Shown: positions 2,028 through 15,968, counted from the first letter of the stretch. The stretch is 64,000 bases of DNA from a virus (IMGVR_UViG_3300029319_009044:1-64000); one strand, 5' to 3'. Notes: generated from the sequence alone by a model not told the origin. Numbers and translations are program-made.

Positions 2028-2501
2028 GTGTTAGAACTAAAAATATTAGAATATAGTAAGGAAAAACAAGCTAAACTTCTCGAACCAGCGAAAAGAGCTC
2101 ATAAGAAACCGGATATTGGAGTAGAGATTAACAATAAGTCTGCTTATTATGTCATTAGAGACTGTGCGATGATTACTCAGAAGTATCTTGTTTTACATAT
2201 ATGGGGAACGTATAATGATCCCTTTAAAGATCTTAAAGGTAAATTTACTACAGATGATGTCACGGACTTTTTAAAAAGAGCAAAATCAGATGCTACCACA
2301 AATCAAATTAAGGATGTAATTATTTCCGCAATGCGAGATAAATTTGATACAACTGTTACTACATCTTCTTCATTTGACTACAGTGTTGAAGAAGATGATA
2401 TTTATGGTTACTACGGAGAAGCGGAGCAAACTGATGATGATTTCGTAGAGCAAGAGATGACTGAAGAGGAAATGTTTTTGAAATTCTTTTCTGTATCTTA
2501 A
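2028..2501 (+). CDS. hypothetical protein with acidic C-terminus
   Basis: GTG start 5 nt after TAAATA; stop abuts the convergent gene. Confidence 0.65.
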   Translation: MLELKILEYSKEKQAKLLEPAKRAHKKPDIGVEINNKSAYYVIRDCAMITQKYLVLHIWGTYNDPFKDLKGKFTTDDVTDFLKRAKSDATTNQIKDVIISAMRDKFDTTVTTSSSFDYSVEEDDIYGYYGEAEQTDDDFVEQEMTEEEMFLKFFSVS

Positions 2502-5500
2502 TTACCCAACTGATATTTTTAAATCAGTACCATCACGCCAAAGGTCTCCTGCTACTCCAGGATCAGACGTTGGTAAGTTTGGCATATTAACTTTAGTTGT
2601 TAGCAAATTAGTTGATATATTATCTCCATCTAACTGAATATAATTGCAAACTCCCCCAGAACCATTATCTGTTCTTAAGAAAACATCCTGATTATCAACT
2701 GAGTTTGTTATGTATAGATCACCGGTTTTATTGTTAATGTATGAATTATCGGCCGTATGAACCAGTTCTAAATCTCCACTTGATCCAGCTTGTAAGAAAA
2801 CATCATCTTGCGCTCTAATATTTTTGTAAGCTCTCGTTAAAGTACCACCACCATCTATTTGTAGATAATTAGTTACTCCTCCGGAACCATCATCAGACTG
2901 GAAGAGGATATCTCCATCGTCTTGATAGTTAGCAATGTATAAGTCATTAGTTGTATTTCTTATATTAGAATTAGTACCATCATGCCATATTGATAAATCA
3001 TAACCGGATCCGTAATATGACTGAATGTTATCTGCATTCAGTGTGCCTTTGTGATGGTTAAGTATTTCACTGTTTCCGTCTATTGTAAAATAATCAGTTG
3101 TTCCGCCACTACCATCATCAGTCTTAAAGACAATACAACCATTATCCTGAGAATTTCTAATTTCTAAATTGCAGTTTGTGGTATTAAAAAGAGTTTTAGT
3201 GCCATCATGATACATAGCAAAATCTTTGCCTGAACCTAAAGATATTAACGAGTTGTCTGGCCAATTTGTGTAAAGTGCTGTTGAAGAACTGCCATCATGT
3301 GTTGCTGAAGACCCATCTAAAAAGAAATAGGTTGCTACACCACCAGCCCCATCATCATCCTTGAAAATGATATCTTTATCGTCAGCGTATTGTGTAATTG
3401 TTAAATTACCTTCTAAATTTTCAATAGTTGTATCTGTTCCATCGTGCCTAAAACGCAAATCAGCATTATTTCCCAAACCTAAATATGAAAAATCAGGAAA
3501 TATTGTAAAAGGATGACCAGTAGAAAGGGAGCTATCTAAATAGAAGTAGGTTTCATAGCCTCCACTACCATCATCAGCTCTAAATATAATATCTTTATCA
3601 TTTGCAAAATTTGAAATGTAAAAATCACCAAGATAATTAGTTATACCAGAGTTAGTACCGTCATGACTGATCTTAAGATCACCACCATTACCAAACATCG
3701 CTTCAACACCATCTAAAACCTGTATATCTTTGGTAAACTTAACTACTGAGTTTTGTCCATCTACTCTAAAATATTCTGTAACATCACCAGAACCATCATC
3801 ACTTCTAAATATTATAGATTTATCATCCTTTTCATTTTGTATGTATAAATCTCCTTCAGTATTTGCTATTGAAGAGTCTGTACCATTATGTCTTATCTTT
3901 AAATCAGCACCAGATCCAAAGCATGCATAGTAATTATCAGCTAACGATAAACCAGTTAAAGATGCAGAACATCCAAATATCTGACCATCTCTTTCAATAC
4001 AAAATCTTGTATTGCCGTTATCTTGAACCCGAAGTAAATCATCACTATCACCATCAAGACCAGTAACATTTACTCTAATACCACTTGCGTTATTAGTAGA
4101 GCATGCTGTAATTATTGGTCCAGCTGCTTCCATGTTTATACTACTAACTCCTTTGAGCCCTTGACTACTAATAGTTCCTGCTACTGTAAGAGAGCAAGCC
4201 GGGGCGGTAGTACCTATTCCTACCTTACCATCAGAAAGAATACGCATTGCTTCTTCATCGGCTACATCAAAGGCTAGACTGTCGCCATTGTGTCTGTACC
4301 GAATCATTCCCCTATTAGAATCATCGTCATCACCAAATACAATTTGATTTTGACCTGCCGAGCCTCCTGACCTCATGAAAAATTGAGTAGTTGCATCTGT
4401 GGCAGTGTTCCGCAAACGAATATCCGCACCCGATCCTTCAACATCGAGTAAGAAATTCGGGGTACTAGTTCCTATACCAACATTACCTCCATTTAAAAAA
4501 CTATCACCACTAGAGTTTAAACAAAGTTTATTTACTCCACTACTGTTATTAAGAATAAATTCTCCATGCTGATATCCCTCACTACTCCTTTGCATAGTAG
4601 CTACCTGAATACCAGCATTATTCAAAGTAGTTATTTCACCCTTAACGGAAAGTTCTTGAGGAGGTGTATTAGTGCCTATACCGACACTACCTCCGAAGTA
4701 ATTAGGTGATGTTCCTACAGCACTAAGTTGATTTCCGGTTATATCCCCATTTGCGCTTATGTCTCCTGTAACACTAAAGCCAGATAATTCAAATTCGTAA
4801 TTAATTTCTCCAGCCGAAAGTAAAGTAGATGCATATATCCTTTCAGCATTTATTTCCCCGTTAACGGTTAAATTACCATCCATTGTACCACCATCAGCAA
4901 ATTGCTTAGCTACAGATCCTCCACCCCCGCCATATGTATCAACAGCTCTCCGTAGAGTCATTAACTGTTGCTGAAAAGTATTAGTTAAATTTGTTTGAAT
5001 ATCATCTTGTATTTTTTTAGGATCAATTATTACATTTTTATCCCCGTACTGCTCAATTACAGTAGCTGCTTCATTTTGATAATTTGCAAATTTTGATAGT
5101 AAATCTTCTTTATTTTCTTCAATTAAATCAAAAATATATGCTTTAACTTTAGATTCTTCACCTGAAAAAGATTCTTCTATAACTTGTAATTTAGTATCAA
5201 AATAAGATCTAGCTGATTGCTCCGCTTTTGTAAACTTAGACTCTAAGGCTTCTTCTATATATTTCATAGAAGAGTCTAAAGTATCCTCTAACCCTTTCTT
5301 TACATTGCCTACACGACTTAGGGTTTTATTAAAGCTCTTATTTAATTCATTATGAATATCAACTTTTGCCTTTGATATAGATACAACTTCAGCATCTAAT
5401 TGCTTAAATTTTAAATTTATATCTTCATTAAGATCATCAATTTTTAAATCTAAGTTTTCTTGTAATAAATTAAAAGATTCTTTATTTTTCTTATCTTTAT

Positions 5501-6209
5501 CTTCAACTAATTTTATTAGTGTTGAAGTATAAATTTCATCAGTTAGATCCTTTAAGTTTTCTTTTAGTAAATCAACTGACTTATTATGTTCTTGTTTTAC
5601 TGCTGTAGTTAATTCATCACTATGATCATTTAATGACTCTCTAATATAAATTTTTAGCTTATCTTTTAAATTATCCTCTAACTGTATATTAGTTTCATAC
5701 AATTCTAATTTAGTATTTTCAGTTAAATTTAAAAACTCTTCTACAAATGAATTACGAGCATTAGAAATTATATCGTTTATTTTACTCTCTTTTAAATCTA
5801 ATGACTCTACTAGTTTTTTAATTTTTGCTTCATGTTGTTGTTTCTCTAGTTTAGTACTTGAAATTCTAGCTTGATCTATTTCATGAATAATACTTTCCTT
5901 AAAAAGACCAGAACTTTTTGGTGTATTACTATTAATAGTTTTTTTGTTGACAGTATTACTATTAAATAAGATCTCTTGAGGTCCTTTATTTAAAATAAAT
6001 TGGGCTTTATACTTCTTATTACCTACTTCTACTGGTACAGATACAACAGGTTGACCTTTATAGGTAGTTTCTTTCTCTGCTATATATGTTGAACCATTTA
6101 TCTCAAATTCAAAGACATCGAAAAAAACTTCTTCTAAGCTTTCAACAGTTAAGATGTTATGATTTGAGCTAGTATAGGTAGGTTTTACCTTTTCGCTAAA
6201 CAGTTTCAT
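2502..6209 (-). CDS. large fibre-like virion protein: N-terminal coiled coil, poly-Gly hinge, G.VGIGT repeats, six ~75-aa beta repeats
   Basis: GxVGIGT motifs; repeats of DLxIxHDGTNSxI...IF(R/K)xDDGSGGxxxYFxxDG; start moved from 6215 to 6209 because TAAATA-N5-ATG fits there. Confidence 0.7.
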   Translation of the reverse strand: MKLFSEKVKPTYTSSNHNILTVESLEEVFFDVFEFEINGSTYIAEKETTYKGQPVVSVPVEVGNKKYKAQFILNKGPQEILFNSNTVNKKTINSNTPKSSGLFKESIIHEIDQARISSTKLEKQQHEAKIKKLVESLDLKESKINDIISNARNSFVEEFLNLTENTKLELYETNIQLEDNLKDKLKIYIRESLNDHSDELTTAVKQEHNKSVDLLKENLKDLTDEIYTSTLIKLVEDKDKKNKESFNLLQENLDLKIDDLNEDINLKFKQLDAEVVSISKAKVDIHNELNKSFNKTLSRVGNVKKGLEDTLDSSMKYIEEALESKFTKAEQSARSYFDTKLQVIEESFSGEESKVKAYIFDLIEENKEDLLSKFANYQNEAATVIEQYGDKNVIIDPKKIQDDIQTNLTNTFQQQLMTLRRAVDTYGGGGGSVAKQFADGGTMDGNLTVNGEINAERIYASTLLSAGEINYEFELSGFSVTGDISANGDITGNQLSAVGTSPNYFGGSVGIGTNTPPQELSVKGEITTLNNAGIQVATMQRSSEGYQHGEFILNNSSGVNKLCLNSSGDSFLNGGNVGIGTSTPNFLLDVEGSGADIRLRNTATDATTQFFMRSGGSAGQNQIVFGDDDDSNRGMIRYRHNGDSLAFDVADEEAMRILSDGKVGIGTTAPACSLTVAGTISSQGLKGVSSINMEAAGPIITACSTNNASGIRVNVTGLDGDSDDLLRVQDNGNTRFCIERDGQIFGCSASLTGLSLADNYYACFGSGADLKIRHNGTDSSIANTEGDLYIQNEKDDKSIIFRSDDGSGDVTEYFRVDGQNSVVKFTKDIQVLDGVEAMFGNGGDLKISHDGTNSGITNYLGDFYISNFANDKDIIFRADDGSGGYETYFYLDSSLSTGHPFTIFPDFSYLGLGNNADLRFRHDGTDTTIENLEGNLTITQYADDKDIIFKDDDGAGGVATYFFLDGSSATHDGSSSTALYTNWPDNSLISLGSGKDFAMYHDGTKTLFNTTNCNLEIRNSQDNGCIVFKTDDGSGGTTDYFTIDGNSEILNHHKGTLNADNIQSYYGSGYDLSIWHDGTNSNIRNTTNDLYIANYQDDGDILFQSDDGSGGVTNYLQIDGGGTLTRAYKNIRAQDDVFLQAGSSGDLELVHTADNSYINNKTGDLYITNSVDNQDVFLRTDNGSGGVCNYIQLDGDNISTNLLTTKVNMPNLPTSDPGVAGDLWRDGTDLKISVG
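2620..3925 (-). repeat. six tandem degenerate protein repeats (~70-85 aa) in the fibre
   Basis: Repeated GxGxDLxIxHDG...DDGSGG...YFxxDG in the translation; boundaries approximate. Confidence 0.8.
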
Positions 6210-6220
6210 ATACATATTTA

Positions 6221-7201
6221 TTACTTAGCTCTATATTTCTCTACGTAATATTTAACTGTTGATGATAAATTAAATTTATTTTGCTTCTTTACTGATTTAA
6301 GATTATGTTTTGAAGAAAGCTGGTATTTAAAGTCGTGTCCTTTTCTATCTTGAACGAATTCTAAGTAGTCACTTCTCTTTCTTTTATAATTAGGAAATTG
6401 ATGTTCGATCTCTTTAATGACTTTTTTAATTAATTCAAGATTATTACAAACTAAATTACCTACAATATTATATATTTTAGCAGGTACATCATCAAACAAT
6501 ACCTCTATAATTGCTTTTGCATGATCTTGAGCATGTATCCATTCTCTTATATTTTTTCCATTACCATACACAGGTACTTTTTTACCAAGTATTACTGATC
6601 TTATTATAGTAGGAATTAATTTTTCATCGTGTTGTCTAGCTCCATAATTATTACAACATCTAGTAATAGAAGCATCTATTCCAAAAGTAGTAACATAAGA
6701 TTGTACTAATAAGTCTGATCCAGCTTTAGTAGCTGAGTAAGGTGACCTAGGGGCTAAAGGACTATCTTCAGAAAAAGGAGGATCATCTTTGTCTAAATGA
6801 CCATACACTTCATCTGTAGATACATGTATCATTCTAGCTTTATGCTTCCTAACTAATTCTAAAATTTTAGAAGTGCCTACCAAATTAGAGTCAACAAAAG
6901 ATAATGGATTATCTATAGATCTATCTACATGAGATTCTGCTGCTAAGTGTAGAACATAGTCTATTTTTTTATCGATAAATTCTAAAGGATTAGCCATGTT
7001 AAGTCTCCAATGTTCATCATTAGATATATCTATAAAATGATTTTGTACTCTTTCGTCTTTTACTATATTTTCTGCAGAAGAACCTACTCCCATTTTATCA
7101 ATATTGTATATAAAAAGCTCTTTATCTTTTAGTTTTAAAAGCTCTTTAATAACATATGACCCAATAAAGCCACATCCCCCGGTTACTAGATATGTACTCA
7201 T
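6221..7201 (-). CDS. rmlB: dTDP/NDP-glucose 4,6-dehydratase
   Basis: GGCGFIGS, HLAAESHVDRS, STDEVYG, YSATK, NNYG, DRKGHD. Confidence 0.92.
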   Translation of the reverse strand: MSTYLVTGGCGFIGSYVIKELLKLKDKELFIYNIDKMGVGSSAENIVKDERVQNHFIDISNDEHWRLNMANPLEFIDKKIDYVLHLAAESHVDRSIDNPLSFVDSNLVGTSKILELVRKHKARMIHVSTDEVYGHLDKDDPPFSEDSPLAPRSPYSATKAGSDLLVQSYVTTFGIDASITRCCNNYGARQHDEKLIPTIIRSVILGKKVPVYGNGKNIREWIHAQDHAKAIIEVLFDDVPAKIYNIVGNLVCNNLELIKKVIKEIEHQFPNYKRKRSDYLEFVQDRKGHDFKYQLSSKHNLKSVKKQNKFNLSSTVKYYVEKYRAK

Positions 7202-7638
7202 TTCTTTTTAACTATATCTGGATTTTGTTTTATAGTTTGCAATGTAATCAAATCTTTTATTCTAGTAGTTGACCACTCATGAGATCTTGTGGTATAAATT
7301 ACTCTAGGTGGTAAGTCATCTCCTGTAAATGGTTTAGCTATATAATCTTCTCCTAAGATACGAATGTCAGGTTTAAAGAATTTTATTAAATCATATAACT
7401 CTTCTTCGGTTTGATACATATAGACTTCGTCTATATACTGAATTGCCATTAAAGTCTTATATCTCTCATAATACGGTATTACAGGCTTGTATTTAGTATA
7501 TCTAGTTGAAGAAGGGTCTTTTTGCAAAAAGACTAAAAATCTATTACAATGTCTTTTAGCTTCTTCAAAAGTATAAATATAACCCGGGTGAAGTAAGTCG
7601 AAACTTCCAGCAGTAAACCCTACAATTTCTTTATTCAT
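7198..7638 (-). CDS. cytidylyltransferase family protein (TagD/RfaE-II-like)
   Basis: GSFDLLHPGY (HXGH variant), ER, GEDY, RSHEWSTTRIK. Confidence 0.8.
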   Translation of the reverse strand: MNKEIVGFTAGSFDLLHPGYIYTFEEAKRHCNRFLVFLQKDPSSTRYTKYKPVIPYYERYKTLMAIQYIDEVYMYQTEEELYDLIKFFKPDIRILGEDYIAKPFTGDDLPPRVIYTTRSHEWSTTRIKDLITLQTIKQNPDIVKKK

Positions 7639-8491
7639 CCAATATTATTTTATTCAGAGCGGAATGAATAGCAAGTTCTTCATCCATAGGGTCAAAACCA
7701 TATTTAGTTTTTAATTTATCTACTGAAAGAACACAATTAGACCTATTAGCTAAACAATTTAGTTCATCAAATTGAACCCATTTCCATTTATCATTACCTA
7801 ATCCATATTCATCCATAAGCTCTATTATATTATCAGTAGCTAGAGGATTAGGCTGTACAAAATTTAATATATCTTTTTCTTTTGTTTCAACTTTATTCTT
7901 AATTACTTTCTCAATAAAATCTAACAATTGTGGAATGTAAGTTTTAGAATTTTTTAAATTTATAAGATTATTGTATTTTTTAATTTTAGTTAAGTAAGAT
8001 CGTTCATGTAACCTATCACAGAAAGGCATTCTTACTCTTAAAATTAATCCATGATCACATCCTAATTCAAATGCATGTTTACTTTTTGAATATGTAGAAG
8101 ATTCTCTATCAAAGAATCCAAAGTTAGGATAATCTTCTTCATTGAATTCTTTAGTATAATTAGTATATATGCAGCCTGAAGATATATGAATATAATTAAT
8201 ATCATAAGCTTTACATAAATTACTAAGCTTTAAAGGTGCAAAGGTATTTAATTCATAGCATAGCTCAGGTTTTCTTTCTCCTTCATCTACATTTGGTCTA
8301 CCAGTAAAACCAAAACAATTAATTACATAATCAAATTTTTCTCTTTTAAACCATTTTATAAGTTCTGATGAATTAGTATAATCAAGAAACTCTTTTCGTA
8401 CTATAGTAACATCGCTCTTTTCAATTTTTTTAAGACGTCCATAAAGGTAAGAGCCTACATATCCATGTCCAAGTATAAGTATTTTTTGCAT
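7631..8491 (-). CDS. NDP-4-keto-6-deoxyglucose 3,5-epimerase/4-reductase (NRS/ER, RmlD-superfamily SDR)
   Basis: GHGYVG, GFTGRPNVD..E, SSGCIY, YSKSK, LRVRMP, RSNC.L as in plant and giant-virus NRS/ER. Confidence 0.75.
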   Translation of the reverse strand: MQKILILGHGYVGSYLYGRLKKIEKSDVTIVRKEFLDYTNSSELIKWFKREKFDYVINCFGFTGRPNVDEGERKPELCYELNTFAPLKLSNLCKAYDINYIHISSGCIYTNYTKEFNEEDYPNFGFFDRESSTYSKSKHAFELGCDHGLILRVRMPFCDRLHERSYLTKIKKYNNLINLKNSKTYIPQLLDFIEKVIKNKVETKEKDILNFVQPNPLATDNIIELMDEYGLGNDKWKWVQFDELNCLANRSNCVLSVDKLKTKYGFDPMDEELAIHSALNKIILDE

Positions 8492-8492
8492 A

Positions 8493-9533
8493 TTAAATCT
8501 CTAATGTATTAGGTTCGTATATTTTACTATGTGTCTTTGTACATCTTACAAATGTAGCACACTTGCATAAATGTTTAAGCTTAGCAGCTCCAACATATGT
8601 ACATGTACTTCTAATACCTCCTAAAATATCTTGAACAATATAACGAATGGGTCCTTTATAAGGTATAACTACTCTTCTTCCTTCCGATGTTCTATAATCT
8701 TTGAGACCTCCATTATGCTTATCGTTAGCAATTTTGCTACTCATTCCATAAAACTCAACATATTCTTTTCCATCTATTATAATTTTCTCACCTCCACCTT
8801 CAGGAGAACCAGCTAACATAGATCCGAGCATTACAAAGTCTGCGCCAGCTCCAAACGCTTTAGCTACATCACCCGGCGTCGTACATCCACCATCAGCAAT
8901 TATATGACCATCTAAACCATGAGCAGCATCAGCACATTCAGCAATACAACTAAACTGAGGATAACCAACTCCTGTCTTAAGTCGAGTTGTACAGACACTT
9001 CCTGATCCAATACCTACTTTAATAATATCTGCTCCAGCTAAAAGTAGCTCTTCAACCATTTCACCCGTAACAACATTACCTGCTATGATATTACTTTTAG
9101 GAAAAGTTTTTCTTACTTCCTTTACAAAGTCGACAAGTGCTTGAGTATAACCATTCGCTACATCAATACATATATTACGTACTGAAGCTTTTTTATAAAT
9201 ACGAGATAATTTCTTGTAATCATATTCATTTCTTCCTACAGTTACAGCTACATGCTTACCTTTATTATCTTTAAGCTCTTCAATAAGCTCCTTTTCATCA
9301 ATGTCCTTCTTGTAACAAGTAAAGAGATCTAGATCACTTAAGGTTCTTCCTACGTCTAACGTACCAACACCATCCATGTTAGCAGCCATTATCGGTATAC
9401 CGCGGTATGAACCACCGTATTTGAATCTAAAAGTTCTTGTTAAATCCACCTCTTTACGAGATGTTAACGTAGACCTTTTAGGTCTAATCAACACATCATC
9501 GAAATCGTACTTTAATTCAGTTTCTATACGCAT
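8493..9533 (-). CDS. guaC: GMP reductase
   Basis: [58 protein letters not shown]. Confidence 0.93.
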
Positions 9534-9569
9534 GCCTTCTTAATTATAAGGCTATATTGTATATTTCAA
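9534..9569 (-). promoter_or_regulatory. sigma70-like promoter for the guaC-NRS/ER-cytidylyltransferase-rmlB operon
   Basis: TTGAAA 36 nt upstream of the ATG, with TATAAT between. Confidence 0.5.
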
Positions 9570-9769
9570 CTTGATATCTTGTCTCTTATCAACTGTAAGT
9601 TAATTTCTCCTTCTTCTAAACTATCGGAGATTTGTTGAGTTAATTCATTTCCTAGTTCGCTAAGTTCATAATCTTCTGTACTATGCAAAACTTCAGTTAA
9701 TTTATCTAACGCATCATATAATTCTTCTACACCCACTTCAAATTTTTTAAGAATTGAACTTTGTTTCAT
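9566..9769 (-). CDS. small acidic hypothetical protein
   Basis: ORF preceded by TAAATA-N6-ATG. Confidence 0.6.
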   Translation of the reverse strand: MKQSSILKKFEVGVEELYDALDKLTEVLHSTEDYELSELGNELTQQISDSLEEGEINLQLIRDKISS

Positions 9770-9799
9770 ATATTCTATTTATTTTATTAAATATAATTA

Positions 9800-10426
9800 A
9801 TGACGTTCTTAGAAGAAGTAAACTTAATTTTAGAAAAAGTTGGTCAGTATAAGCCTATCAACTTACCTTACAAATTAAATGCATTAGAGCCAGTAGTTAA
9901 CAAGCAAACTACTGACTTTCATTTTAACAAGCATTATAAGGGGTATGTTAAAAAATTAAATGCAGCTATGGGTGCTAGAAAAAAAATACCTTTGGTAGAG
10001 TTAGTTAAAAATATAAAAGGTTACAATGATAAAGTAAGAGATAATGCTGGAGGAGCTTATAATCATCAATTATTTTTTAACATGATGAAGCCAGGGGGTA
10101 GTGACTTTAACGGAGAGATTGCTGATAGAATTAAAAAACGTTTTGGTACATATGCTAAATTCAAAAAAGAGTTTATTGATAATGCAGCAAGTCAGTTTGG
10201 TTCAGGGTGGGGTTGGTTAGTTGAAAAAGATGGTAAATTAGATTTAGCAAAGACACCTAATCAAGATAATCCACTAATGCATAATATGGGTAAGCCTATA
10301 TTAGGTGTTGATGTATGGGAGCATAGCTACTACTTAATGTATGGACCAGATAGAAAAGAATGGCTAAGTAAGTTTTTCGAGATTGTTAACTGGGATTACT
10401 GCTCCGCTCTTTTGCATACTAGCTAG
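9800..10426 (+). CDS. sodA: Fe/Mn superoxide dismutase, Mn-type signature
   Basis: LPY..NALEP, HF.KH, NAGGAYNH, FGSGWGWL, TPNQD.P, DVWEHSYY. Confidence 0.9.
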   Translation: MTFLEEVNLILEKVGQYKPINLPYKLNALEPVVNKQTTDFHFNKHYKGYVKKLNAAMGARKKIPLVELVKNIKGYNDKVRDNAGGAYNHQLFFNMMKPGGSDFNGEIADRIKKRFGTYAKFKKEFIDNAASQFGSGWGWLVEKDGKLDLAKTPNQDNPLMHNMGKPILGVDVWEHSYYLMYGPDRKEWLSKFFEIVNWDYCSALLHTS

Positions 10427-11089
10427 GATAGCTTCTATTTCTGCTTTCATATAGTTTACATGATAAGTCAAAAATCTATCATCTTTAAGATAAAAAATAA
10501 CACATTTTCTACATCTCTTACTTGTCATTCTTTCATACAAGTAAGCATATAAAGATAGTTGTAGACCATATAAATTAAATTCACAGTTATGAAGATGACT
10601 CACTGGGTCTTTAAGTCTTTCACAATAAGAAGAGCTAAATCTAAAACGCTTATTAGTTTTAAAGTCGCCAATAGTAAACTCATTTTTATGTTCGTAAATT
10701 AAATCTGCAGTACCAGCGATCTTAAACTCTTCATCATATAATAAATTCTCACACAAAACATTCTTAAAAGAATCTATAGAACGTTCAGCTGCTTTATCGT
10801 ATGATTTACATAACCAACCATAATTATCTTGTACATCGCCATAACTAATATAATCTTCTAAAATTTTATGAATATTAGTACCTCTCGTACAAGCTCTTAC
10901 CTTTTCTTTCTCCCACATTTCAAGAACTAACTCTTGTGATATACCTTCTCTATCTGCTACTCGTTTGGAATGTCCATCTCTATCAAAAGGTTGTTTGTAT
11001 TTACCGAGTAGAGTAGTTACGGAAATAAACTTTTCATTTGTATCAGTATGAGTATACGTATGAGAAGCTTCGTCAAATTTAATTTTCAC
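10364..11089 (-). CDS. PD-(D/E)XK exonuclease (Cas4-like phage nuclease)
   Basis: SVTTLL, RGT.IH..LE, E..L....IAGTADL, DFKT, QLSLYAY. Confidence 0.8.
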   Translation of the reverse strand: MKIKFDEASHTYTHTDTNEKFISVTTLLGKYKQPFDRDGHSKRVADREGISQELVLEMWEKEKVRACTRGTNIHKILEDYISYGDVQDNYGWLCKSYDKAAERSIDSFKNVLCENLLYDEEFKIAGTADLIYEHKNEFTIGDFKTNKRFRFSSSYCERLKDPVSHLHNCEFNLYGLQLSLYAYLYERMTSKRCRKCVIFYLKDDRFLTYHVNYMKAEIEAILASMQKSGAVIPVNNLEKLT

Positions 11090-11176
11090 TATTCTATATT
11101 ATACTTATAGAATTATAAAATCAATAAAAATTAACGTATCTCTAGAACTACGTTGTTTTTACTATAAATATATAAA

Positions 11177-11494
11177 ATGGAACCTGAAAAATCCCTACTC
11201 AAAGAGTTTCTAAGCGGTGGTTGGGTCGTACCTTTGATAGGGGCCGGCGCTATGCTAGCGCGTTTATTATCTGGGGAAAACAATTACACTTGGGGTCAAC
11301 AACTTAAAAAGATACTAACTGCTGGTATATCAGCTGGAATAGCATGGTTTATACTTGAACAAACTGAGATTTCTTCTCTTTATAAAGCAGTTACATATGG
11401 AATTATTGGTGTTATATCACCTGAGGTTATAGAAGGTATAGTAAAACTTGGTAAAAAATTTGCAGATAATCCTGAAAAGGTTATCAAAAAGTAA
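11177..11494 (+). CDS. small multi-pass membrane protein (holin-like)
   Basis: About three hydrophobic segments, basic C-terminus, late promoter TATAAATA. Confidence 0.5.
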   Translation: MEPEKSLLKEFLSGGWVVPLIGAGAMLARLLSGENNYTWGQQLKKILTAGISAGIAWFILEQTEISSLYKAVTYGIIGVISPEVIEGIVKLGKKFADNPEKVIKK

Positions 11495-11739
11495 TGAAAC
11501 CAAAATATTTAGTATATATTTTAGCAGCTATTATTTTAGCGTTTGTTATTAGAGGGTATTTTTGCGTAGATATGGTTCATGTTTATTTAGATGCTTTAAA
11601 TAAAGGAGCTCTAACTACAGATGGAGATTTGTATTGTAGTGTAAGTGAAAATATAGAAGGATTTAAGAAGCATTTACTATTCTCAGGGGTGTTAGCAGTA
11701 GTTATTGCTGTTTGTTGCAGGTTAAAAGCACCGAAGTAA
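11494..11739 (+). CDS. small two-TM membrane protein
   Basis: Two hydrophobic segments; TAATG coupling to the upstream gene. Confidence 0.55.
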   Translation: MKPKYLVYILAAIILAFVIRGYFCVDMVHVYLDALNKGALTTDGDLYCSVSENIEGFKKHLLFSGVLAVVIAVCCRLKAPK

Positions 11740-11751
11740 ATAAATATAATT

Positions 11752-14139
11752 ATGGGAAAGAAGATATCCGAACTTACTATCGCTAGTACTCCGTATGAAG
11801 GAGAAGAGCTGTTCGCTATGGTTGAAGATAGTGCTACTGTAGCTGCTCCAATTAGCTCATTTCAATCCTTTTTATCAGGTCAGGATCATTTAGCATCGCC
11901 TCATAAAAATAATCATTTCGTTTGTGATCAAACTGTAGCTGGAAAATTAAGTGGAGAGCAATTGAACATAGGTACTCAGAATAACGCTACATTAGGTTCA
12001 CAAGCTTCCATAGCTGGTGGATGTAAACAGGCTGCTACAGGAGCTCAAACATTTATAGGAGGAGGAGACTGTAACGTAACTACAGGAGTTAACTCTGCTA
12101 TTCTAGGAGGTGAAGAAAACTGCTCTCAAGGTGCATGTGGAATAATTGTAGGAGGTAAGTGCCATGAAACAGAAACTACTGCTACATATGGTTTTATTGG
12201 CGGTGGGTTTAAAAACTGTGTGACTGCTAATTACGGTACAATTGGTGGAGGTCAATGTAATACAGGTACAACTAATGGTGGTTATGGTTTTATAGGTGCG
12301 GGTAGACGCAATGAAGTATGCGCATCAAAAGGAGGTATCATTGCTGGAGAAGATAATACTATTACAGGGTGCGATTCATTTATAGGAGCTGGAAAAGCAA
12401 ATAATGCCAGGGGTCAAAATTCAACTGTGGTAGGTGGAATTAGTTCGTGTGCTATTGGTAAAGGTTCTTTTGTTGGAGGTGGTATTGTTAACTGCGCAAC
12501 AGGGGGATGTGCTATAGCTGGAGGGGGCAGCTTAAACAAGCCCACTGGATGTGTTAGTGCAATAGTTGGTGGTATTACAAATACAGCTTCTGGAAGTGCT
12601 TCATTTATTGGAGGTGGATCAACCAATACTGCTTCAGCTAAAGCGTCTGTAGTTGGTGGTGGTTTTAACAACACTGCTGAAGGTCCTAGTGCTACTAAAG
12701 GATGCACAACTGTAGCAGGTGGTGAAACTAATATAGTTTCTCAATGCTGGGGATTTATCGGAGGAGGGTGCAACAATACTGTAAATGGTGTTGCTGGAGT
12801 AGTAGCTGGAGGCGTTGCAAATACAGCAGATGCTGATTATACTTTTATCGGAGGAGGTGAGTCAAACTTACCAGTTAATTCTAGTCACGGTGTAGTTGCA
12901 GGTGGTTGTGGAAATGTTCTAGCAGCTCCTTGCACAGTAATAGCAGGAGGTAAATCAAACTCAACTGCAGCGGGTACAGATTTTGGTATTATCGGAGGTG
13001 GAGAATCTAATGCTATTACTGCTAATGCATGCCATGGATCTATTATAGGTGGTTGTGGAAACAAAGTATGTAATGACTTTGGTACAGTTGGTGGTGGAAA
13101 AGCAAACTGCTCTGGCGCTGCATGTTCTTATGTAGGAGGTGGAGAATCTAATGATATAGCTGCTGGTAATTACTCAGTAATAGTTGGAGGTAAGGGCAGC
13201 TATACCTGTAATACAGGTGTATTTATTGGTGGAGGTTATCTTCATTGTGCATCAGGAGCAGAATGCAGTACTATAGTCGGAGGTTATGGTAATACATTAA
13301 TAACCGGAGCTAGTGGTGCATTTATAGGCGGGGGTGTTCATAATAAAGGATTAGGTCAAGGAACATTTATTGGAGGAGGAGCACTTAACTGCACTAACTC
13401 ATGCGCTGGAGGATGTTTTGCTACTATAGCAGGAGGTAGAAAGAATACAGTTGATGGAGCATTTTCAACTTTAGTAGGTGGATGTAGTAACTGTGTATCT
13501 GCTGCTTGTGGTACAGTGGTTGGAGGATATGAAAACTGTGTAGAAAGTAGTGGTGCAAGTAGCTTTATTGGAGGAGGTTATTGCAATACTGCTAATGTAA
13601 CGCAAGGTACTATTGGAGGAGGCAGAGAAAATAATGTTGATTCTGGTGAAGGAGGCTTTATTGGAGGAGGTTGTGGTAATACTACTTCTAATGCATATGC
13701 AACATTAGGTGGAGGTAAAGGTAATATTGCTTCAGGTACATGTTCTTTTGTAGGTGGAGGACAACTCAACTGTGCAACAAAACCGTGGTCATTAGTAGTG
13801 GGAGGATGTCAAAATAGAGAATCAGGTACATGTTTAAATGTTATTGTAGGAGGTATGACTAATCTTATATGCGAATCAGCTACAGCAAGTAGTATATTAG
13901 GAGGGTTTAATAATGTGTTATCTGCAAATTATGCTTTCATAGGTGGCGGATGTGGTAATAAGACACATTGTACAGCTCATCATCATTCAGCTATTGTAAC
14001 TTCAGATATAACAACAGTTTCAGCTTGCATGTTACATGCTAATTCATTATATCTCAAAAATTTACCAACAGCTGAACCACATACTGCAGGAGTAATATGG
14101 AGAGATGGTACAACACTTAAAATATCTTGCGCAAGTTAA
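11752..14139 (+). CDS. Gly/Cys-rich 14-aa-repeat adhesin or fibre protein (YadA-head-like beta-roll)
   Basis: N-terminal KISEL fibre-anchor-like motif; >40 repeats of SxI(G/V)GGxxNxAxG; about 45 Cys; late promoter. Confidence 0.7.
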   Translation: MGKKISELTIASTPYEGEELFAMVEDSATVAAPISSFQSFLSGQDHLASPHKNNHFVCDQTVAGKLSGEQLNIGTQNNATLGSQASIAGGCKQAATGAQTFIGGGDCNVTTGVNSAILGGEENCSQGACGIIVGGKCHETETTATYGFIGGGFKNCVTANYGTIGGGQCNTGTTNGGYGFIGAGRRNEVCASKGGIIAGEDNTITGCDSFIGAGKANNARGQNSTVVGGISSCAIGKGSFVGGGIVNCATGGCAIAGGGSLNKPTGCVSAIVGGITNTASGSASFIGGGSTNTASAKASVVGGGFNNTAEGPSATKGCTTVAGGETNIVSQCWGFIGGGCNNTVNGVAGVVAGGVANTADADYTFIGGGESNLPVNSSHGVVAGGCGNVLAAPCTVIAGGKSNSTAAGTDFGIIGGGESNAITANACHGSIIGGCGNKVCNDFGTVGGGKANCSGAACSYVGGGESNDIAAGNYSVIVGGKGSYTCNTGVFIGGGYLHCASGAECSTIVGGYGNTLITGASGAFIGGGVHNKGLGQGTFIGGGALNCTNSCAGGCFATIAGGRKNTVDGAFSTLVGGCSNCVSAACGTVVGGYENCVESSGASSFIGGGYCNTANVTQGTIGGGRENNVDSGEGGFIGGGCGNTTSNAYATLGGGKGNIASGTCSFVGGGQLNCATKPWSLVVGGCQNRESGTCLNVIVGGMTNLICESATASSILGGFNNVLSANYAFIGGGCGNKTHCTAHHHSAIVTSDITTVSACMLHANSLYLKNLPTAEPHTAGVIWRDGTTLKISCAS

Positions 14140-14175
14140 CTTGATTTATAATAAAAGCATACTAAATTTATTAGT

Positions 14176-15174
14176 ATGGCCACAACAGTTTTTCACATTG
14201 AAGGAGGTATAGGTAAAAATATTGCAGCTACAGCAGTTATTGCTGCGTATAAAAAAGCTAAACCTGAACGTAAAATTATAGTTGTATCAGCTTGGGCTGA
14301 AGTTTGGATGAATAATCCAAATGTTGCAAGGTTTTATGTAATAGGTAATACGCCTTACTTTTATAAAGATATTATCCAAGGTAAAGATGTTGAAATTTAC
14401 TCAGGTGATCCTTACAGAACTACAGATCATATTACTAAAAAGACCCATTTAATTAAAACGTGGTGTAAGATGGCTGGAGTAGAACATAACCATGAGGGTC
14501 CTAATCTTCATTTTAATTTTAGAGAGTTAGAAGAAGGGGCTGCTTATGTTAATCAGTTTAGAAGAGACGGTCGACCTGTTCTTCTTTTTCAACCTTTTGG
14601 AGGCCCAGGTAAAGAGCATCAACAGCATCCATATTCTTGGACAAGAGACATGCATCCAAGTCAAGCTCAAGCTGTAGTAAATAAATTAGCTCAAAAATAT
14701 AATATTGTTCATGTATGCTATGAATTTCATCCAAAATTACAAAACTGTCATCGCTTTGATAAAATTATTGGAAAGAAAGCTCTGTTTGCAATGACAGGTA
14801 ATGCAAATAAACGTTTATTTGTAGACTCTTCACTTCAGCATGCTGCAGCTGCACTTGGTCAAAAATCTGTAGTATTGTGGGTAGCAACACAGCCAAAGAT
14901 ATTTGGATATGGTATTCATAACAATATAGGACCTAAGAAAGAATATCTAGAAGGCCATATCGATTCATATTTGTTTGACTATAATTTTACAGGAACCATT
15001 TATGAATGCCCGTATAAAGATCCAGCTGATATTCATGATGTAGATGAAATAGTAGCTGCTGTTGAGCAGGAGGATAAACCTAAAGAGGAGCCTAAACAAG
15101 AACCTAAAGTGAAGCCTAAAGAAGAACCTAAAGAAGAACCTAAAGAGGAGCCTAAGAAAGATAAAAAATCTTAG
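14176..15174 (+). CDS. GT-B glycosyltransferase, GT9 (heptosyltransferase)-like, with C-terminal KEEP repeat tail
   Basis: GGIGK.IAAT...KKA.P...I.V, NP.V, FVDSSLQHAAAALG..SVVLW..T.P..FGY resemble GT9 motifs. Confidence 0.7.
   Translation: MATTVFHIEGGIGKNIAATAVIAAYKKAKPERKIIVVSAWAEVWMNNPNVARFYVIGNTPYFYKDIIQGKDVEIYSGDPYRTTDHITKKTHLIKTWCKMAGVEHNHEGPNLHFNFRELEEGAAYVNQFRRDGRPVLLFQPFGGPGKEHQQHPYSWTRDMHPSQAQAVVNKLAQKYNIVHVCYEFHPKLQNCHRFDKIIGKKALFAMTGNANKRLFVDSSLQHAAAALGQKSVVLWVATQPKIFGYGIHNNIGPKKEYLEGHIDSYLFDYNFTGTIYECPYKDPADIHDVDEIVAAVEQEDKPKEEPKQEPKVKPKEEPKEEPKEEPKKDKKS
15076..15160 (+). repeat. 12-bp tandem repeat encoding (K-E-E-P)n
   Basis: cctaaagaagaa/cctaaagaggag units, about 7 copies. Confidence 0.85.
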
Positions 15175-15968
15175 TAATACGATCCGTAAATATCGGTATC
15201 ATTTACATCCATATCCATTACATCAGTTTTAGATAAGTTATCAATATTATATGGATCTTCTTCAGTAGGATATGTCTTACCGCTTGAAGTCAATTGATCA
15301 GTAAGCGTAGTAGATAATATACCACTAAACGAATTATCATAAACTTGCTCGTTAGCTTTTTCAGCAGATAAACCATTCTGGAAGGTAAAGTCTAATCTCT
15401 TACCTCTTAATCTATAAATGTAATGACCTAATAATGGATTAAGAGAAGATATATCTTGATCCATTCGTTCAGTTATTTCATATTTAACTGAACCTCTTCC
15501 ATTAGGTCTATCACAACCTAGTACAGTTAAATCAATTACATCTCCTGATTTAGGTTCTATAGACTGACCAACAGATGAATAATCGAAGAATGCTGAAGCT
15601 GCAGTATGAAAAGTACTAATGTGTACATAAGCAGTAAATTCATCTCCTGGATCAAAACCAAATTTAGTTAAATTAACAGCATCGTCATTTAATTCAATAT
15701 ACATTTGTACCCCGGAAAGAGGCCCCTGATATTGTTTAACTGAATCTTCTCCATATAAAAGATCTGCAGCAGATAAGTTAAATGTATTAATATAATAATC
15801 TACAGGTATACCAAAATTATTAATGAGATCGTTAAAGGCTTGATCAAAAACTAATTGTTCTGCTTGTAAATTAGATGGATTAACTAACTCACCGCAAGAA
15901 GGTATAGCAGTAGCAGCTAAAACTTCTTCTGGTGTACAGTTTAATCTATTTTCATTACATACTGACAT
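15171..15968 (-). CDS. gp14: neck / head-closure protein (T4 gp14-like)
   Basis: I..FG..V.YY, D.LYGED, MYIE, TKFG...D, P..GD.I pattern. Confidence 0.65.
   Translation of the reverse strand: MSVCNENRLNCTPEEVLAATAIPSCGELVNPSNLQAEQLVFDQAFNDLINNFGIPVDYYINTFNLSAADLLYGEDSVKQYQGPLSGVQMYIELNDDAVNLTKFGFDPGDEFTAYVHISTFHTAASAFFDYSSVGQSIEPKSGDVIDLTVLGCDRPNGRGSVKYEITERMDQDISSLNPLLGHYIYRLRGKRLDFTFQNGLSAEKANEQVYDNSFSGILSTTLTDQLTSSGKTYPTEEDPYNIDNLSKTDVMDMDVNDTDIYGSYY

Follow-up and report, generated by a model that had tools for sequence, protein, structure and literature searches.

A virus-specific GT9-fold protein encoded beside fibre genes of a marine T4-like phage, a candidate fibre glycosyltransferase

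Does a phage that encodes both sugar-nucleotide enzymes and a glycosyltransferase among its fibre genes use them on its own virion? The question is raised by IMGVR_UViG_3300029319_009044:1-64000, a window of 64,000 nucleotides (nt) from the start of a virus record of 170.9 kb in IMG/VR (CheckV completeness 81%). An initial annotation of positions 2,502 to 15,174 had proposed that the phage makes its own activated sugar and decorates its fibres with a GT9-like transferase encoded 36 nt downstream of a Gly/Cys-rich fibre, here called fibre B. All the genes lie at the coordinates given there (Table 1), and the transferase does start 36 nt past the fibre B stop codon. We found that the transferase belongs to a virus-only family with a GT9 fold, and that a fibre gene is its constant neighbor across related phages. 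Glycosylation of fibre B or other virion proteins by this enzyme is our best reading of the locus, and we give it about an even chance of being right.

Profile searches did not place the transferase firmly. The Pfam GT9 model (PF01075) scored it at 17.8 bits, below the cut-off of 22, and matched only 12 of 70 relatives at E≤0.01 (best 2.8e-5); an NCBIfam scan gave zero hits, and PHROGs assigns the protein to a family of unknown function. In hhalign, only the C-terminal domain aligned by sequence, to the C-domain of WaaF, with a probability of 92%. An AlphaFold model (AF2) built from 70 diverse relatives (pLDDT 94.8, pTM 0.92) matched GT9 structures with VIA Z scores of 23.8 (3tov), 21.3 (WaaF) and 20.6 (WaaC) over 248–272 residues, at a root-mean-square deviation (rmsd) of 3.1–3.4, and matched TibC with a Z score of 20.4 (rmsd 2.9 over 262 residues). 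The GT9-fold subunits of NDH-PSI supercomplexes followed at 18–19, and the next unrelated GT-B folds at only ∼11.5. Foldseek matched the model to GT9 structures with E values of 8e-13 to 4e-9. Thus, the label “GT9-like” is borne out by the fold (Z 20–24 against ∼11.5) but not by the Pfam threshold.

The GT9 donor motif, D217-S218-x3-H222-AAA, is kept in the family (D217 in 67, S218 and H222 in 68 of the 70 relatives, with the alanines at A224–A226) and aligns to WaaF and WaaC. The N-terminal loop reads G10-G11-x-G13-K14, with Lys14 present in 68 of the 70, and each of the two motifs is conserved in at least 62. Lys14 appears to occupy the place of the catalytic Asp (D13 in WaaC, D110 in TibC), as judged from the offsets of the structural alignments (model residue 2 to WaaC residue 1, model residue 1 to TibC residue 96) rather than from a residue-level superposition. 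About 20 residues are nearly invariant over the 70 relatives, which share 27–68% identity, and on this ground we argue that the transferase is a live enzyme; in some relatives the protein carries a fused GT25 or FkbM methyltransferase domain, indicating that the family works in glycan assembly. From its conserved residues and modeled fold, the product is almost certainly an active sugar-nucleotide enzyme. Residues 301–332 (15076–15171, plus strand) form a Lys/Glu/Pro-rich tail with repeats of the Pro-Lys-Glu-Glu-Pro type that is found in this genome alone, the relatives ending at ∼296–300 residues.

The family is large, comprising 1157 clusters at 90% identity and 681 at 50%, and is otherwise unannotated. 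Its Atlas clusters are 98–100% viral, and it is absent from cellular clusters. The sole tblastn match was one unannotated record, Marine virus AG-345-L05, at 38.6% identity, and we found no paper describing the family or its pairing with fibres. We treat it as a putative new virus-specific family within the GT9 structural clan, outside both GT9 proper and the bacterial autotransporter heptosyltransferases (BAHTs).

The initial annotation likened the locus to the E. coli adhesin-transferase pairs TibA/TibC and AIDA-I/Aah. The BAHT enzymes of these pairs (PDB 4rap/4rb4; PMC4358343) likewise have a GT9-clan GT-B core; they are cytoplasmic and encoded beside the repetitive β-solenoid-type adhesin that they hyperglycosylate, as the phage gene lies beside a repetitive fibre. 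The analogy holds for gene arrangement and fold and fails for the BAHT hallmarks. BAHTs carry an N-terminal β-barrel before the catalytic domain, a four-Cys iron finger and dodecamer-forming inserts (PMC4358343). In the phage enzyme, model residues 1–300 align to TibC 96–390 with nothing left over for a barrel. The iron finger (C339, C342, C358 and C370 in TibC) is also absent: the protein has 4 Cys in total without a clustered CxxC pair, none is on the 75% conservation list, and C97 (in WC) and C278 (in CPY) appear only in the majority consensus. Also unlike TibC and Aah, it has Lys at the D110 place and belongs to a virus-only family, and its partner is a trimeric UspA1-head-like or collagen-like fibre rather than a monomeric autotransporter passenger. 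The best structural matches, WaaC, WaaF and the Veillonella GT9 protein 3tov, have the D-[ST]-x3-H-x-AAA donor motif in common with it. However, the phage GGxGK replaces the xxxGD loop that bears the catalytic D13, and WaaC and WaaF are encoded in lipopolysaccharide (LPS) core operons, whereas the phage enzyme is encoded beside a fibre gene.

Whether transferase homologues recur next to Cys-rich fibres in other phage genomes was a check suggested with the initial annotation, and they do. In relatives at 52–88% identity (loci L002–L028), the transferase lies 18–45 nt downstream of a Cys-rich open reading frame (ORF) in every contig that extends upstream of it. The closest group has at this place a fibre of ∼813 residues that is 49–59% identical to fibre B, between flanking genes at 85–100%. 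In a group at 58%, the ORF has only 277–327 residues but retains the N-terminal 45 residues and the C-terminal module. In locus L163, the transferase (59% identical) follows, after 53 nt, a fibre of 1413 residues whose N-terminal 455 residues are homologous not to fibre B but to fibre A, the second fibre of the region. Among the 52–88% relatives, then, the paired fibre ranges from 277 to 1413 residues and has two different N-terminal types, while the spacing stays within 18–53 nt. At 30–45% identity (L029–L064), the transferase is mostly 0.4–4 kb downstream of giant Gly-rich fibres, several of them collagen-like with uninterrupted GXY runs of 200–837 residues; there was no fibre gene within the DNA present in L044 and L062–L064. 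Many loci are close relatives of each other, so that these counts represent perhaps six to ten independent lineages, not sixty. The reverse search, from fibre B towards transferases, returned only three known contigs, fibre B being too variable.

In the 30–45% lineages, the genes near the transferase include a sulfotransferase, APS kinase, a small ATP-sulfurylase-like nucleotidyltransferase, 2-oxoglutarate (2OG)-Fe(II) oxygenases, a carbamoyltransferase and GT8; a second GT9-like gene and a 969-residue GT4-GT9-FkbM fusion also lie near distant transferases. The constant partner of the family is the fibre gene, not any one sugar pathway; what varies around it are cytoplasmic enzymes that tailor glycans or hydroxylate proteins. 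Searches of the record studied here found neither a 2OG oxygenase nor GT25 nor a sulfotransferase; the tailoring enzymes of the sister lineages are therefore not part of this phage's system.

Some of these neighborhoods have features of their own. A sulfotransferase flanks the transferase in L039 (4366–7692 region), L027 (9648–10439), L029 (8693–9619) and L163 (10185–11003), and L039 adds APS kinase and the small ATP-sulfurylase-like nucleotidyltransferase, which together look like a phage supply of 3′-phosphoadenosine 5′-phosphosulfate and a sulfation step, encoded next to fibres. The fibres of L053 (3–3665), L054 (3–4439) and L051 (3–4241) are giant, proline-poor and collagen-like, with GXY runs of 525–837 residues rich in Ser, Thr and Gln. 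In L053 the next gene after the transferase encodes a 2OG-Fe(II) oxygenase; in L029 such a gene separates the transferase from the fibre. A QueF-like nitrile reductase gene (L163 3619–4563, QueF_N E 2e-30; homologues in L155–L159) lies just upstream of fibre-A-type genes, which hints at 7-deazaguanine metabolism beside structural genes in related phages.

In the phage itself, the transferase shares a co-directional block on the plus strand with fibre B and, ahead of it, two small genes. The small genes gave a weak holin-like hint below cut-off and are 88–100% identical in close relatives. Over the whole 171-kb record, 62 of 186 predicted genes have the hexamer TAAATA no more than 20 nt from their start, compared with 1.7% of random windows; it stands mostly 5–6 nt (up to ∼10) before the start codon, and it is found on sheath, baseplate and fibre genes. 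Because it marks the starts of structural genes, we read it as a late promoter resembling the T4 type, with very short leaders. The 8-mer TATAAATA was also considered and is not enriched in the window (10 found, 22 expected); the shorter TAAATA at gene starts is the informative signal. TAAATA precedes the first of the two small genes, fibre B, fibre A and a 67-aa ORF (9566–9769). There is none before the transferase, which has only the one-mismatch TAAATT, nor before any gene from guaC through rmlB, and no terminator-like site was found between fibre B and the transferase. From this arrangement, fibre B and the transferase appear to share one late transcription unit.

Fibre B gave zero Pfam hits but matched the head of UspA1, a Moraxella trimeric autotransporter adhesin (3pr7; phmmer E 4e-12, two stretches), and its GG spacings have modes of 14, 15 and 16, corresponding to head-type repeats of 14–16 residues. 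It has no membrane anchor or signal peptide, and its N-terminus is of the phage-fibre type, as in the short fibres of related phages. Thus, what fibre B has in common with adhesins of the YadA/UspA1 type is the repeat, not family membership, since the anchor and secretion signal are not shared. Among relatives it is hypervariable, with conserved N- and C-termini. Fibre A is built from an N-terminal domain, a long Lys/Glu-rich coiled coil, six repeats of ∼65 residues and a C-terminal module (2505–2609); it was matched to phage tail-fibre PHROGs, with weaker similarity to Bdellovibrio fibre proteins. Its TAAATA shares bases with the first ATG and is 5 nt upstream of the ATG at 6209, which makes the latter the likelier start, in agreement with the length of 1235 residues first reported.

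The two fibres were said to share a C-terminal module. They do, but only over their last 26–35 residues (16 of 26 identical, E 8e-8; alignment A3 of 11 fibres), and the module is in no other ORF of the 171-kb record. When three copies of alignment A3 were modeled as a homotrimer, the score was 0.78 against 0.01 for the best of 3 controls, a mark reached in calibration by 20 of 30 one-chain-pair proteins and 1 of 23 single-chain proteins, although this calibration is rough for a run with its own alignment and three copies instead of two. The trimer runs agreed in at least 93% of contacts, with partner pLDDT of at least 88. Given this model, which speaks for binding, a role in trimerisation explains the module better than one in glycosylation. 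Its likeness to the T4 fibritin foldon is in role and position only; a search for foldon or fibritin homology, by phmmer and profile search of the PDB, gave only chance matches to antibody J-regions.

We turn to the sugar. The RmlB-like protein matched TIGR01181 (E 9e-96, 320.7 bits, under the equivalog cut-off of 365), dTDP-glucose 4,6-dehydratases in the PDB (to 5e-69) and Mimivirus R141 (6vlo, 2e-44), and it carries GxxGxxG, T-D-E and YxxxK motifs. The NRS/ER-like protein matched Arabidopsis NRS/ER (4qqr, 2.2e-20), Mimivirus L780 (7jid, 2.2e-18) and RmlD (1vl0, 2.1e-5). Its segments S-S-G-C-I-Y, Y-S-K-S-K and L-T-K-I align to the L780 equivalents and to 4qqr residues that, counting along the alignment, we take to be T113/C115, Y144/K148 and K183. 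In L780, Cys108 and Lys175 were found by mutagenesis to be catalytic in epimerisation (PMC9614988). With the catalytic residues conserved in both proteins, as anticipated in the initial annotation, the pair should form a complete two-enzyme route from UDP- or dTDP-glucose to NDP-L-rhamnose. Mimivirus R141 and L780 form such a pathway, whose product feeds fibril glycosylation (PMC9614988). The phage pair has the two-enzyme design of Mimivirus and of plant NRS/ER, its reductase keeping the Cys/Lys epimerisation pair and, as in Mimivirus, a virus-encoded sugar supply would serve a surface fibre. In contrast to Mimivirus, the phage has a bacterial host and a dehydratase nearest to RmlB of bacteria and archaea, and the Mimivirus transferases are unrelated.

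These two genes sit in what had been described as a four-gene sugar operon directly upstream of fibre A. The layout is as described: the minus strand carries, in order, the 67-aa ORF, guaC, the NRS/ER-like gene, the PF01467 nucleotidyltransferase, the RmlB-like gene and fibre A, the junctions from guaC to the RmlB-like gene are a 1-nt gap, an 8-nt overlap and a 4-nt overlap, and 5 nt separate the RmlB-like gene from fibre A. The dedicated sugar operon is another matter. By its NF003470 match (Table 1), GuaC is an ordinary GMP reductase, a predicted passenger from nucleotide metabolism and not a sugar enzyme. The supposed cytidylyltransferase is a nucleotidyltransferase of the TagD/ECT/HldC type, not an RmlA-type sugar-1-phosphate nucleotidyltransferase; its best scores were to the HldE adenylyltransferase domain (NCBIfam, PHROGs) and to ethanolamine-phosphate and glycerol-3-phosphate cytidylyltransferases (PDB), and its H-P-G-Y variant is present in 117 of 120 listed homologues. 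It is not a close homologue of the ATP-sulfurylase-like enzyme found beside distant transferases (E 0.25). Both GuaC and this nucleotidyltransferase are absent from the 58% relatives, which keep the dehydratase and NRS/ER-like genes, there beside the fibre-transferase pair; in the 52% locus L027 only the NRS/ER-like gene was seen, with an RmlA-type nucleotidyltransferase. In L153, genes for proteins like methylthioribose-1-phosphate isomerase (IF-2B, E 2e-71) and nucleoside/methylthioadenosine phosphorylase (E 2e-40) are inserted between the nucleotidyltransferase and the dehydratase (2281–4010). The cluster is a mosaic of auxiliary genes, in which GuaC and the nucleotidyltransferase are passengers. 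Nor is its place beside fibre A fixed: fibre A is present in L153 (63% identity) but absent in L003, L007 and L008, where the homologue of 2028–2501 abuts the rmlB homologue.

How might these parts work together? Fibre B would be translated in the cytoplasm late in infection, and the soluble GT9-clan enzyme, made from the same late transcript, would take the sugar of a nucleotide-sugar and attach it to side chains of the fibre, either ahead of trimer assembly or as it proceeds, so that the virion would leave the cell with a glycosylated adhesin-like fibre. The RmlB-like and NRS/ER-like enzymes would top up the donor pool, converting host UDP- or dTDP-glucose to NDP-L-rhamnose, and the C-terminal module would serve trimerisation and not as a glycosylation signal. 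The fibre would be the acceptor, modified on Ser/Thr, Asn or Cys residues. It is rather doubtful, within this scheme, that rhamnose is the sugar transferred, instead of host ADP-heptose or another. We favor fibre glycosylation because the transferase appears to be co-transcribed late with the fibre, its adjacency survives replacement of the fibre, the enzyme is soluble and cytoplasmic, protein-modifying and glycan-tailoring genes accompany collagen-like fibres in sister lineages, the family is virus-only, and no Wzx, Wzy/WaaL or WbaP-type initiating phosphoglycosyltransferase was found in the 171-kb record. Of the original proposal, the two-enzyme rhamnose route, a GT9-clan GT-B enzyme and its conserved linkage to fibres have support, to which the late unit adds; the fibre as acceptor and the use of rhamnose are what we infer.

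A number of points weigh against fibre glycosylation. To our knowledge, all characterised GT9 enzymes except the BAHTs act on LPS cores, and we know of no GT9 enzyme that uses NDP-rhamnose. The family lacks the BAHT features used for adhesin recognition, and Lys at the place of WaaC D13 and TibC D110 may mean a chemistry differing from classical inverting glycosyltransfer. The rhamnose genes are unlinked to the transferase in the 30–45% lineages and, in this phage, lie on the opposite strand, 4.5 kb away, within the mosaic cluster; the tandem GT2 protein, the only other glycosyltransferase detected in the record, might consume the phage's NDP-rhamnose in its stead. Common descent by itself can preserve gene order among phage structural genes, and many of the loci compared are closely related to one another. 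Moreover, the published view of such genes in pelagimyophages is that they modify the host O-chain (PMC7029224). Remodeling of the host envelope is indeed the chief alternative: the transferase and the NDP-sugar would alter host LPS core, O-chain or capsule during infection, which could block superinfection or the trapping of progeny on cell debris, and adjacency to the fibre would reflect a shared hypervariable host-range region. Of the GT9 relatives with solved structures, WaaC and WaaF attach heptose to LPS; GT25, to which some family members are fused, carries an LPS-biosynthesis annotation; synteny in a structural region may be inherited without functional meaning; and both Zaragoza-Solas et al. 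(PMC7029224), for pelagimyophage glycosyltransferases and rfaE, and cyanomyovirus papers (PMC12801897) read such genes in this way. This sits poorly with a transferase that is apparently expressed late in a unit with a structural gene, that keeps its 18–53 nt adjacency while the fibre is swapped and that belongs to a family absent from cellular clusters; 2OG oxygenases near collagen-like fibres suggest protein modification, and neither flippase, polymerase, ligase nor initiating transferase was found in the record. We regard envelope remodeling as possible but somewhat unlikely.

Two further roles can be set against the same evidence. Phage fibre genes are commonly followed by a chaperone gene (T4 gp38, lambda Tfa), and the GT-B protein might be a non-catalytic assembly chaperone for the fibre or a virion component; the GT9-fold PnsB1-type NDH subunits of plants are structural (NDH-PSI subunits matched at Z 18–19), and the canonical catalytic Asp is replaced by Lys. 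However, the donor motif and ∼20 residues stay nearly invariant over 70 relatives, down to 27% identity, and the GT25 and FkbM fusions and glycan-tailoring neighbors fit an active enzyme, which makes a purely structural role improbable. Less probable still, indeed hardly to be expected, is that the transferase and NDP-rhamnose glycosylate modified bases of the phage DNA and so evade restriction. T-even GT-B enzymes and diverse phage transferases do glycosylate DNA (as cited in PMC12619734), but the fold here is specifically GT9, the gene stands in a late structural unit instead of with replication genes, its conserved partner is a fibre, and the tandem GT2 gene, at 97–98 kb near replication genes, is the better candidate. 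As for fibre glycosylation in its boldest form, that the family is a new class of protein glycosyltransferase, with Lys for the catalytic Asp, that uses phage NDP-L-rhamnose or links sugars to fibre cysteines and so coats the receptor-binding fibres of ocean myoviruses, we consider it distinctly unlikely.

What kind of phage is this? The window encodes a T4-type large terminase (∼35–38% identical to terminases of “far-T4” phages), a tail sheath, a baseplate wedge protein and many fibre-like proteins, and its GC content is near 32%; the 171-kb record also holds a CsgG curli gene (140983–141603). Neither psbA nor a tRNA was found in the window, and megablast of the whole region against GenBank phages gave zero matches. 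Pelagimyophages carry glycosyltransferase-rich host-recognition clusters, whose enzymes were read as modifiers of the host O-chain, and GMP reductase was specific to one of “deep ecotype” (Zaragoza-Solas et al. 2020, PMC7029224). In common with these T4-like marine myoviruses, the phage has ∼32% GC, CsgG, GMP reductase, and rfaE-like and glycosyltransferase genes among its fibres; unlike the present analysis, that study singles out neither the GT9-like family nor its tight pairing with fibre genes. The closest fit among described phages is the deep-water PMP-MAVG-4 of PMC7029224. Since the GC content, CsgG, GMP reductase and lack of psbA match pelagimyophages, the host is, by analogy, probably SAR11. 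An assignment through GuaC was uninformative, its nearest cellular homologues being in Flavobacteriaceae at 57–60% identity.

The remaining genes of the region are listed with the others in Table 1. The gene that follows the transferase on the opposite strand probably encodes the small terminase subunit; it has no family match, and in L027 a homologue at 35% identity stops 3 nt short of the large terminase gene. The superoxide dismutase gene has its own TAAATA late-promoter motif and is 87–95% conserved in close relatives. The PD-(D/E)XK nuclease-family gene, between the sugar genes and the fibre unit, is kept at ∼70% even in the 58% lineage and is thus part of the stable backbone of the region.

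Table 1. Features of the locus (whole-record positions; aa, amino acids).
Feature	Position	Strand	Length and remarks
Fibre A	2502-6215	-	1237 aa from first ATG, 1235 aa from ATG at 6209
NDP-glucose 4,6-dehydratase, RmlB-like	6221-7201	-	326 aa
Small PF01467 nucleotidyltransferase, TagD/ECT/HldC-like	7198-7638	-	146 aa; H-P-G-Y in place of HxGH
Bifunctional NDP-4-keto-6-deoxyglucose 3,5-epimerase/4-reductase (NRS/ER or UGER type)	7631-8491	-	286 aa
GMP reductase GuaC	8493-9533	-	346 aa; NF003470 492.6 bits, cut-off 397
Fe/Mn superoxide dismutase	9800-10426	+	Sod_Fe_N E 4e-20, Sod_Fe_C E 9e-34
PD-(D/E)XK nuclease-family protein	10364-11089	-	E 1.4e-6
TAAATA, second copy	11165-11170	+	before 11177-11494
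Two small genes opening the late unit	11177-11739	+	105 aa (11177-11494) and 81 aa, the second with a hydrophobic Cys-Cys tail
TAAATA, late-promoter-like motif	11737-11742	+	9 nt before fibre B start
Fibre B, Gly/Cys-rich, adhesin-like	11752-14139	+	795 aa; 21% Gly, 5.7% Cys (45 Cys)
C-terminal module of fibre B	14032-14136	+	35 residues; L-P-T-x-[DE]-P ... G ... [WY] ... L-[KR]-[IV]-S
GT9-clan GT-B transferase, virus-only family	14176-15174	+	332 aa; core, residues 1-300
Small terminase subunit candidate	15171-15968	-	265 aa
Tandem GT2 frame	97156-98454 (outside window)	+	532 aa; two GT2 domains

It is already established that phage enzymes glycosylate virions in mycobacteriophages, that giant viruses do so through virus-encoded pathways, and that adhesins are paired with GT9 enzymes in E. 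coli. Mycobacteriophages encode, beside their structural genes, glycosyltransferases that modify proteins of the virion (Freeman et al. 2023, PMC10527164). Those enzymes are of other families, act on the C-termini of capsid and tail-tube proteins and work in actinobacterial hosts, and virion glycosylation was demonstrated there, whereas here it is read from genes. In marine T4-like phages, genes for glycosyltransferases and sugars are routinely classed as auxiliary and taken to change the surface of the host. If fibre glycosylation is correct, a very large family (681 clusters at 50% identity, aquatic and viral) would have to be seen differently, and the most abundant myoviruses of the ocean would join mycobacteriophages and giant viruses in having glycosylated virions. 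The enzyme would be a compact GT-B protein glycosyltransferase with an unusual active-site loop. Its product would add a chemical layer to host recognition and particle stickiness, bearing on adsorption and on aggregation with marine organic matter. In the boldest form of the idea, glycosylation, accompanied in sister lineages by sulfation, carbamoylation or methylation, would be a widespread and unrecognised layer of host range and defence evasion in marine T4-like phages.

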